A stretch of DNA of 64,000 bases from Pseudomonadota bacterium. GTDB taxonomy: Bacteria; Myxococcota; JACRCW01; JAFGSX01. The stretch's first letter is position 1, and the number at the start of each line of letters is the position of its first letter. Below are positions 16,470 to 17,860 of the stretch, piece by piece. Under the pieces are notes generated by a model that saw nothing but the letters and a program-made list of their open reading frames with translations, did not search any database and was not told the DNA's origin. The stretch is taken from contig JBDRCO010000108.1 of the NCBI GenBank assembly GCA_043821645.1, positions 33,161 to 97,160 on the forward strand, written 5' to 3'. Made by a program: the position numbers and the translations under genes.

Positions 16470-17543
16470 GTGGTCAGGCCACGGCTGGATCAAGCTTTTG
16501 TCGACGGTGTGGTCCCCACGGCCGTGGGCCTGGTGCCCCGCGTCACCTCGCTCCTGAGCAGTGCGGATCGATGGAATGCCACCAAGGTGCGCTGGCGCTT
16601 CGGCCGCGACGACTACCGCGTGGATCCCGGCCTGTATGCCCTCCACCATCCGGATGCCGACGCGCCTGTGCTGGTCACCGCCAACTACAAGCTCAGCTTC
16701 GACGCACTGCGTGAGCCGCTGGCCGAGCTCAACGCGTGGATCCTCGTGCTCGACACCCGTGGCATCAACGTCTGGTGCGCCGCCGGCAAGGGAAGCTTCT
16801 CCACCGACGAGGTGGTGCGCCAGGTCGAGGCGAGCCGCCTGGCCAGCCTGGTCTCGCACCGCACCCTGGTGCTGCCCCAGCTCGGCGCGCCCGGCGTGGC
16901 CGCCCACGAGGTCAAGTCCGGCTGCGGCTTCAAGGTGCGCTACGGCCCCATCCGCAGCGACGATGTGCCGGCCTTTCTGGCGGCGGGTTCGCGCGCAACG
17001 GCGCAGATGCGACGCAAGAGCTTTGACCTGCGCGAGCGGGTCACCCTGATCCCGGTCGAGCTGGTGGGCGCCTTGCCGGCGGCGGCGGGCGTGCTGATCG
17101 GCGCGGTGCTGCTGGCCGCCCTGGTCTGGCCTGGATCCCTGGCCACCGCGGCCCGGGATCACGGGCTGCCCCTGGCCCTGTCCACGCTGCTCGGATTGAT
17201 CGGCGGCGCGGTGCTGGTGCCGACGCTGCTGCCCTGGCTGCCCGGACGCGCCTTCGCCTTCAAGGGGCTGCTCGCGGGTCTGCCGCTGGTGCTGATCCTG
17301 GTGGCGCTGCTTCGCCCAGAGCACTGGTCGCTATCGACGGGGTTGGAGGCCATGGCCTGGGTGGCTTTGACCGCGGCCGTGGCCAGCTACCTGGGCATGA
17401 TGTTCACGGGTTCGAGCAGTTTCACTTCGCTCTCCGGCGTGCGGCGGGAAATGCGCCTGGCGGTGCCGCTCCAGCTGGCGGGGCTGGTCGTCGCCGTGGC
17501 GACCTGGGTGGGTGCTCGCGTCGTCGCGGGAGGTGGCACGTGA
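16470..17543 (+). CDS. hgcA: HgcA, corrinoid protein of mercury methylation (N-terminal corrinoid-binding domain plus C-terminal multi-TM domain)
   Basis: Diagnostic cap-helix motif 'GINVWCAAGKGSFST'. The conserved N-terminal 'PRV...DRW...YRVDPGLYAL' block resembles HgcA. C-terminal ~150 aa contains 4-5 TM helices. GTG start. Confidence 0.85.
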   Translation: MVRPRLDQAFVDGVVPTAVGLVPRVTSLLSSADRWNATKVRWRFGRDDYRVDPGLYALHHPDADAPVLVTANYKLSFDALREPLAELNAWILVLDTRGINVWCAAGKGSFSTDEVVRQVEASRLASLVSHRTLVLPQLGAPGVAAHEVKSGCGFKVRYGPIRSDDVPAFLAAGSRATAQMRRKSFDLRERVTLIPVELVGALPAAAGVLIGAVLLAALVWPGSLATAARDHGLPLALSTLLGLIGGAVLVPTLLPWLPGRAFAFKGLLAGLPLVLILVALLRPEHWSLSTGLEAMAWVALTAAVASYLGMMFTGSSSFTSLSGVRREMRLAVPLQLAGLVVAVATWVGARVVAGGGT

Positions 17544-17860
17544 GCGCGATGCTGTACCTGCGCGACGTCGTCAGCCTGACGCTGGACCGCGAGCGCTGCA
17601 CAGGGTGCCGCATGTGCACCCGCGTGTGCCCGCATGCGGTGTTCACCGTCGACGACGGCAAGGCCCTGATCGTGCAGCGTGATGCCTGCATGGAGTGCGG
17701 GGCCTGTGCTCGGAACTGCGAGGCCGGCGCACTTGCCGTGACCGCGGGCGTGGGCTGCGCCGCGGCGGTGGTCAACGGACTGCTTGGCCGCTCGGGGGGC
17801 GACTGCTGCTGCGTGGTGGACGGTGACGGCAGCCCTCGGACCTCGTCAGATTGCTGCTGA
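17540..17860 (+). CDS. hgcB: HgcB, 2[4Fe-4S] ferredoxin partner of HgcA
   Basis: Two CX2CX2CX3C motifs (CTGCRMCTRVC and CMECGACARNC). Conserved 'GVGCAA' and a C-terminal Cys cluster ending 'SSDCC'. GTG start overlaps the hgcA stop. GGAGGTG ribosome-binding site. Confidence 0.8.
   Translation: MSAMLYLRDVVSLTLDRERCTGCRMCTRVCPHAVFTVDDGKALIVQRDACMECGACARNCEAGALAVTAGVGCAAAVVNGLLGRSGGDCCCVVDGDGSPRTSSDCC

Follow-up and report, generated by a model that had tools for sequence, protein, structure and literature searches.

A divergent, predicted mercury-methylation gene pair (hgcA–hgcB) in a Myxococcota-like bacterium from deep groundwater

The stretch of DNA analysed here, 64,000 nucleotides of contig JBDRCO010000108.1 (GenBank assembly GCA_043821645.1; referred to below as the window, with positions numbered from its first letter), very probably carries a genuine two-gene hgcA–hgcB operon that is native to an uncultured, Myxococcota-like bacterium of high GC content living in anoxic deep groundwater. 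No genetic marker of methylmercury production by microbes is known other than the hgcA and hgcB genes. A first-pass annotation had reported an intact pair at 16470–17860, and both open reading frames (ORFs) were found at exactly these positions, each encoding a protein that exceeded the cut-off of the corresponding curated profile. The domain architecture, the organisation as an operon and every residue implicated in catalysis can be observed in the pair itself; by analogy with characterised proteins, the host is a putative mercury methylator.

RESULTS

HgcA and HgcB match their curated families and keep the residues implicated in catalysis

The HgcA protein encoded in the window, identical to GenBank entry MFH1811522.1, scored 421.1 bits against the NCBIfam profile HgcA_corrinoid (NF040863; cut-off 275; E 2.7e-126), its residues 22–351 aligning with profile positions 1–324 of 325. 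HgcB (GenBank MFH1811523.1) scored 114 bits against HgcB_ferredoxin (NF040864; cut-off 99; E 2.2e-33), with residues 6–106 aligned to positions 2–93 of 93. This profile comparison, which the first-pass annotation had proposed as a check, thus came out in favour of both assignments. Pfam shows only a generic corrinoid domain in HgcA (CdhD, PF03599, residues 49–168) and Fer4 domains in HgcB. When phmmer was used, the large subunits of the corrinoid iron–sulphur protein (CFeSP) in entries 2h9a and 4c1n aligned to HgcA residues 49–170.

The motif NVWCAAGK had been noted earlier within a corrinoid-binding domain, and it indeed lies inside the region covered by PF03599 and the CFeSP matches. When HgcA was aligned with its counterparts from 80 taxonomically labelled genome loci, all eight columns of the motif were found to be 100% conserved. 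Absence of the conserved cysteine or cap motif had been put forward as evidence that would count against the assignment; the motif is present and aligns column for column with that of the 80 relatives, and with Thr374 of CFeSP. More precisely, Cys103 of HgcA pairs in the phmmer alignment with Thr374 of chain 2h9a_A, the residue that faces the cobalt in CFeSP and from which the Cys-on proposal first arose. Cys103 is predicted to be the lower axial ligand of the cobalt, equivalent to Cys93 in the HgcA of Pseudodesulfovibrio mercurii (Desulfovibrio desulfuricans) ND132. Among the 81 positions conserved in at least 95% of the sequences, 79 are kept. The motifs conserved in the transmembrane (TM) domain are also present, namely L254, P255, P258, F262, K265 and the segment M310–V324 (MMFTGSSSFTSLSGV), in which only T317S differs.

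HgcB corresponds to what had been described: an overlapping 2[4Fe-4S] ferredoxin with two CX2CX2CX3C motifs and a pair of cysteines at its C-terminus. The first motif is CTGCRMCTRVC, at 17597–17629 (CTGCRMCTRVCP), and the second is CMECGACARNC, at 17687–17719 (CMECGACARNCE). Cys73 follows in the context GVGCA (codon 17756–17758), and the protein ends in the tail CCCVVDGDGSPRTSSDCC followed by the stop codon (17804–17860; the CCC...CC span occupies 17804–17857). The cysteines are therefore those at positions 20, 23, 26, 30, 50, 53, 56, 60 and 73, plus 89–91 (CCC) and 105–106 (CC), and alignment with the 75 HgcB proteins detected among the related loci showed that none of the eight cluster cysteines has been lost and that Cys73 and the Cys-rich tail are likewise retained. 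Mutagenesis in ND132 has shown that Cys93 of HgcA, Cys73 of HgcB and at least one of Cys94/Cys95 of HgcB are required (PMC7305189); all of these residues have counterparts in the proteins of the window.

A structure model of HgcA was obtained with AlphaFold2 from a 50-sequence alignment and without cofactor (mean predicted local distance difference test score, pLDDT, 89.9; predicted TM-score 0.83). It consists of an alpha/beta N-terminal domain followed by five long C-terminal helices (residues 194–219, 224–256, 262–281, 288–314 and 321–355). Together with the roughly five hydrophobic segments seen in a Kyte–Doolittle analysis at residues 191–354, these helices bear out the multi-TM C-terminus suggested earlier. 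When the model was compared with the PDB using Foldseek, the top match was 9a0b_A, a published model of HgcAB (46% identity, E 8.5e-21); CFeSP chains 4c1n, 2ycl and 2h9a came next, each with a probability of 1.00 and a root-mean-square deviation of 2.1–2.2 Å over about 126 residues.

Gene calls and operon structure

Reading frames were ranked by their third-position GC content; most long ORFs in this window (67% GC) are spurious. The values for hgcA (0.88) and hgcB (0.86) therefore mark both as true coding frames. An in-frame TGA lies upstream of hgcA at 16446–16448. The GTG at 16470 was taken as the hgcA start because homology to the relatives begins at residue 4. The start of hgcB has been called differently, at ATG 17549 (103 aa) by the Prokaryotic Genome Annotation Pipeline (PGAP) and at GTG 17540 (106 aa) in the Logan gene call. 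The latter is the likelier, since a Shine–Dalgarno-like GGGAGG lies 6 nt away, the codon overlaps the hgcA stop, and the resulting protein reproduces the cysteine numbering of ND132 HgcB. The overlap spans 4 bp (GTGA, the hgcB GTG over the hgcA TGA) and, together with the Shine–Dalgarno-like sequence, implies that translation of hgcB may be coupled to that of hgcA. A search around the operon, including the 204-bp region upstream of hgcA, for a sigma-70-like promoter, a terminator and Rfam elements or riboswitches found none, and no gene for an ArsR-type regulator adjoins the pair.

Predicted activity of the gene pair

A three-step reaction can be proposed for the pair from its homology to the complex purified from ND132 proteins. 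The [4Fe-4S] clusters of HgcB would supply electrons to the cobalamin bound to HgcA, reducing it to Co(I), as deduced from the ND132 proteins (PMC7305189, PMC11588087). S-adenosylmethionine, and not methyl-tetrahydrofolate, would methylate Co(I) to yield methyl-Co(III), with the thiolate of Cys103 as a ligand (also from work on ND132; PMC11588087, PMC7305189). The methyl group would then pass to Hg(II), probably presented by cysteines of HgcB (the tail and Cys73 have been proposed to handle the substrate and product), and methylmercury would be released.

Several points weigh against reading the locus as a working hgcAB operon of a Myxococcota-like host. HgcA departs from the 81 conserved columns at two positions, G59H and T317S, and the second cluster motif of HgcB ends in CE where 87% of the relatives have CP. 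The cap segment at residues 104–107 had a pLDDT below 50 in the model of HgcA, and no helix was formed at residues 95–111; this would be unsurprising for a cofactor-free model, and it is the sequence alignment, rather than the model, that suggests a cap helix. To our knowledge, no isolate of the Myxococcota has been shown to methylate Hg. In the Baltic Sea, one MAG (metagenome-assembled genome) of the Myxococcota UBA796 group that carries hgc was followed by metatranscriptomics, and its hgc genes were not expressed (PMC9494745).

This last result, together with the very low expression of HgcAB even in ND132 (PMC11588087), the lack of a recognisable ArsR-type regulator, promoter or riboswitch beside the operon, and the substitutions just mentioned in HgcA and HgcB, would fit a true orthologue that is silent or inactive in Hg methylation, either unexpressed, devoid of cobalamin, or dedicated to some other native methyl-transfer role. 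Were this the case, the presence of hgcAB would overstate the potential for methylmercury formation, and Hg methylation might be a side reaction. We consider this explanation unlikely, although it fares better than the other two discussed below. Every residue that mutagenesis has shown to be required is present, and nearly all conserved positions have been kept despite an identity to other HgcA proteins of no more than 57%; this, and the host-adapted codons, are signs of an expressed gene that has long been under purifying selection.

The window HgcA stands apart from its sampled relatives

A search of 5.8 billion clustered proteins found no better non-self match to HgcA than one of 57% identity, and the sequence formed a one-member cluster. 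Of the 80 related loci, 75 have hgcB directly after hgcA; in four of the remaining five the contig ends just past hgcA, and in one (L080) no hgcB was detected. A neighbour-joining tree of HgcA sequences, with 200 bootstraps, placed the window protein on a long branch of its own, close to the base of a Desulfobacterota-type cluster. No stable sister emerged: the most frequent ones were L068 (42% of the bootstraps) and L074 (10%), which are the other very high-GC sequences. Their grouping with the window HgcA was rejected as an effect of composition or long-branch attraction, as what they have in common with it is merely a very high GC content.

The HgcA proteins of two MAGs assigned by GTDB to the Myxococcota were sister to that of the window in at most 1.5% of the bootstraps, and the window protein therefore belongs to an HgcA lineage separate from those two. 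The GC content of hgcA is 70.8%, as compared with a median of 58% among its relatives. Apart from a distant MsrAB gene (see below), no flanking gene was common to the window and the 80 hgcAB loci. The loci of the two closest HgcA proteins (L162 and L163) showed no synteny with the window; they have anaerobe-type neighbourhoods and a lower GC content. A syntenic locus in relatives of the host was sought in a single metagenome scan, using as query the thioredoxin gene located 5.5 kb downstream, which returned nothing above 44% identity and no synteny.

The window HgcA thus apparently represents a distinct and long-resident lineage, and the patchy hgcAB phylogeny shaped by horizontal transfer described by McDaniel et al. 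(PMC7438021) fits this view. The broader proposal, that it is a previously unsampled lineage long resident in deep-biosphere Myxococcota, adapted to a genome of 67–71% GC and unrelated to the other Myxococcota HgcA proteins sampled, seems to us evenly balanced.

Host and integrity of the assembly

The GenBank contig bearing both proteins is 98,151 bp long and belongs to a MAG labelled 'Pseudomonadota bacterium'. Two markers in the window support a Myxococcota-like host. When the source MAG's own entry was set aside, all the named sequences among the top 120 matches to PlsX (62794–63840) came from Myxococcales, Kofleriaceae, Polyangiaceae, Vitiosangium and Bradymonadia, plus one 'Deltaproteobacteria'. 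The nearest named relatives of a PilB-like ATPase (56072–58132) were 'Deltaproteobacteria' and Myxococcota MAGs (57–66% identity); unnamed relatives reached 80%, and distant named matches (39–43%) included Vicinamibacterales and Terriglobia. The Pseudomonadota label is at odds with both markers and probably stems from the legacy taxonomy of the Deltaproteobacteria; surveys of hgcAB hosts based on NCBI taxonomy would misclassify the source MAG.

The first-pass annotation had also invoked MYXO-CTERM and MopE motifs as hallmarks of the Myxococcota. The second of these was found: one MopE metal-binding motif is present in the protein encoded at 44280–45350 (+), and DUF4388 also occurs in the window, both in keeping with a Myxococcota-like host. 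Its neighbour, a metallophosphoesterase resembling purple acid phosphatases (45383–47149, –), ends in GCGC, a hydrophobic stretch and RRR. The best match to the isolated tail of this protein was MYXO-CTERM, with 19.3 bits where 20 are required, and a MYXO-CTERM search of the whole proteins of the window gave no match, so that this half of the claim is borderline and the hallmarks taken together are weak.

An independently assembled Logan contig, from run SRR26275510, was 100% identical to the window over 17493–18830, a stretch that takes in hgcB, flanked by the 3′-end of hgcA and by the following gene (LysM). In the contig index, an exact search returned a match for HgcB but none for HgcA. The run (sample AHRL-281.6) comes from groundwater 281.6 m deep in the Fennoscandian Shield, at borehole SA2074A of the Äspö Hard Rock Laboratory (PMC11484514). 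The study describing it reports three Myxococcota MAGs with ∼67% GC (classes JAFGSX01 and UBA9042, and Polyangia order HGW-17) and makes no mention of hgcA or mercury (PMC11484514). Anoxic deep groundwater is compatible with an oxygen-sensitive enzyme based on a corrinoid and Fe-S clusters.

Given that the nearest HgcA relatives carry Syntrophaceae, Desulfobacterales or Desulfacinum labels, and that the MAG is named as Pseudomonadota and not as Myxococcota, the pair might be thought a Desulfobacterota fragment joined to a Myxococcota contig by faulty assembly or binning, in which case the host assignment would be wrong. However, both genes are located within the uninterrupted 64 kb of the window, itself part of a 98-kb contig, and the high GC content of hgcA differs from the median of its relatives and agrees with its surroundings. 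In fact, the codon-usage index (0.69 for hgcA and 0.71 for hgcB; window mean 0.66 ± 0.06), the tetranucleotide z-scores (0.3–0.8) and the third-position GC match those of the flanking genes, making hgcAB indistinguishable from its neighbours in composition. The hgcA–hgcB–LysM gene junction is moreover reproduced in the Logan assembly and, since even the closest relative is no more than 57% identical, no set of reads could plausibly have served as donor. The match in composition and the independent assembly therefore make a chimera very unlikely.

Paralogous families

Fusion of the two proteins, as in the HgcAB-like family, was rejected: hgcA and hgcB are two separate ORFs, the HgcA and HgcB profiles are passed, and the scores against HgcAB_like (NF043039; 195 bits for HgcA and 57 for HgcB) fall below its cut-off of 285. 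Identity with CFeSP was likewise rejected, as HgcA scored 70 bits against the CFeSP gamma profile (NF003195; cut-off 306), aligned only with positions 322–445 of 450, about the last 125 residues, and is devoid of the N-terminal Fe-S and TIM-barrel domains. By these scores the pair does not belong with the paralogues, the outcome that the first-pass annotation had raised as one that would overturn it. The notion that the ORFs encode a non-methylating HgcAB-like protein, or a CFeSP subunit of the Wood–Ljungdahl pathway with a neighbouring ferredoxin, can draw on the homology of the corrinoid domain to CFeSP (Pfam CdhD), on the sub-threshold HgcAB_like score and on the Wood–Ljungdahl genes of two Myxococcota MAGs or single-amplified genomes obtained at Äspö from different boreholes (69.4 and 345.0 m; PMC11484514), but is scarcely credible in view of the profile scores, the unfused genes, the five-helix membrane domain that replaces the CFeSP N-terminal domains, and the cysteine that stands in place of Thr374.

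Neighbouring loci

The features of the hgcAB locus and of the adjoining operon are listed in Table 1. Directly upstream of hgcA and divergent from it lies a locus resembling a Zorya type III anti-phage system (11661–16265, –). An ORF of 294 aa within it could be a divergent ZorG. The most compositionally atypical region of the window is 13001–16000.

Table 1. Coordinates of the hgcAB locus and of the divergent Zorya-like operon in the window
Feature	Position	Strand	Remarks
hgcA, predicted corrinoid-dependent membrane-anchored methyltransferase	16470–17543	+	357 aa, GTG start, TGA stop
hgcB, 2x[4Fe-4S] ferredoxin with Cys-rich tail	17540–17860	+	106 aa, GTG start
HgcA corrinoid-binding domain, about residues 1–175	16470–16994	+	Pfam, phmmer, Foldseek
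NVWCAAGK cap-region motif, residues 100–107	16767–16790	+	Direct translation
HgcA transmembrane domain, five predicted helices	17028–17534	+	AlphaFold2 and Kyte–Doolittle
Shine–Dalgarno-like GGGAGG	17528–17533	+	In 3′-end of hgcA, 6 nt upstream of hgcB GTG
Intergenic region, 204 bp, presumed promoter region	16266–16469		Separates hgcA from divergent Zorya-like operon
ZorA3	13165–15384	–	208 bits, full length
ZorB3	12464–13168	–	270 bits
ZorF3/DUF2894	∼11661–12470	–	Weak match, 36 bits
294-aa ORF without family match	15381–16265	–	4-bp overlap with zorA3 start

Further away, at 30879–39017 (+), a 747-aa protein without a family match precedes a giant ATPase of 1947 aa. In the latter, DUF7902 and an AAA domain accompany a 672-bit match to DUF3686 ('ATPase involved in DNA repair'). 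PADLOC gave no match to either protein; the two may form an uncharacterised defence or repair module. A gene for a fused MsrA–MsrB methionine sulfoxide reductase is present 11 kb upstream of hgcA (3989–5356, +), and its product is 54–56% identical to homologues encoded 0.3–1.5 kb downstream of hgcB in Desulfacinum/Desulfosoma loci (L031, L052 and L073); this sharing is probably a coincidence. Positions 1–178 (+) correspond to the 3′ portion of a gene for tmRNA (Rfam RF00023, 88.7 bits), cut by the window edge; read from the complete contig, this gene might provide a further marker of taxonomy.

DISCUSSION

Significance of the gene pair

Each confirmed carrier of hgcAB refines the catalogue of the microbes and habitats able to make the neurotoxin methylmercury. 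The claim that the present pair would be notable for methylmercury ecology was nevertheless overstated. PGAP already names the two GenBank proteins 'mercury methylation corrinoid protein HgcA' and 'mercury methylation ferredoxin HgcB', and Myxococcota or Myxococcales MAGs bearing hgcAB have been reported repeatedly, from permafrost in 2020, the Baltic in 2022, the Yongle blue hole in 2025 and the Northwest Pacific in 2026 (PMC7438021, PMC9494745, PMC12953829, PMC12874090). Because such carriers and a correct GenBank annotation already existed, the view of the enzyme, the pathway or its taxonomic range does not change, and the identification is real but fairly ordinary. What is mildly novel is the divergent, singleton HgcA and its deep-groundwater source. 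Reference databases and broad-range primers may under-represent a sequence as divergent as this one. Should the pair prove active, groundwater in deep crystalline bedrock would host a phylogenetically distinct mercury methylator, and the two genes would become candidates for the first HgcAB of the Myxococcota to be validated by experiment.

Comparison with known systems

The reference system is the pair of ND132, which has been characterised by both genetics and biochemistry. The two-gene arrangement is alike, and both HgcA proteins combine a corrinoid domain bearing the cysteine of N(V/I)WCA(A/G)GK with five TM helices; in ND132, this five-TM C-terminal domain is reported to be essential. The HgcB cysteines have identical numbering (20/23/26/30, 50/53/56/60 and 73), and a C-terminal Cys pair is present in both. 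The differences are nonetheless considerable. The identity between the HgcA proteins is only 46% (chain 9a0b_A), and the window pair belongs to a Myxococcota-like MAG of high GC content, whereas ND132 is a sulfate-reducing isolate of the Desulfovibrionales. The window HgcB has an additional CCC triplet, a longer tail, and CE instead of CP in its second motif. No ArsR-like regulator was found adjoining the window pair.

In terms of score, the top relatives of the window HgcA are those of Desulfobacterota MAGs and isolates (Syntrophales, Desulfobacterales and Desulfacinum/Desulfosoma), with 52–57% identity over the full length, the same architecture and hgcB directly downstream. The window gene differs from them in its GC content (71%, against a median of 58%), in the lack of flanking synteny and in its position as a lone long branch. 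With the reported Myxococcota MAGs (permafrost, the Baltic UBA796 group, Yongle blue hole and Northwest Pacific), it shares the host phylum; all of these, too, are putative methylators known only from metagenomes. The HgcA proteins of two Myxococcota MAGs from GTDB, PL23a_bin.40 and MO_167.B37, show identities of 47% and 53% to that of the window, and the habitat of the latter, groundwater in deep crystalline bedrock, sets it apart from those reported before.

The large subunit of CFeSP (AcsC/CdhE; 2h9a, 2ycl and 4c1n) is a more distant relation. Its Rossmann-like corrinoid domain is homologous to that of the window HgcA (E 2.7e-11, ∼30% identity), but the latter has no N-terminal [4Fe-4S] or TIM-barrel domain, carries a membrane domain and has a cysteine where CFeSP has Thr374.

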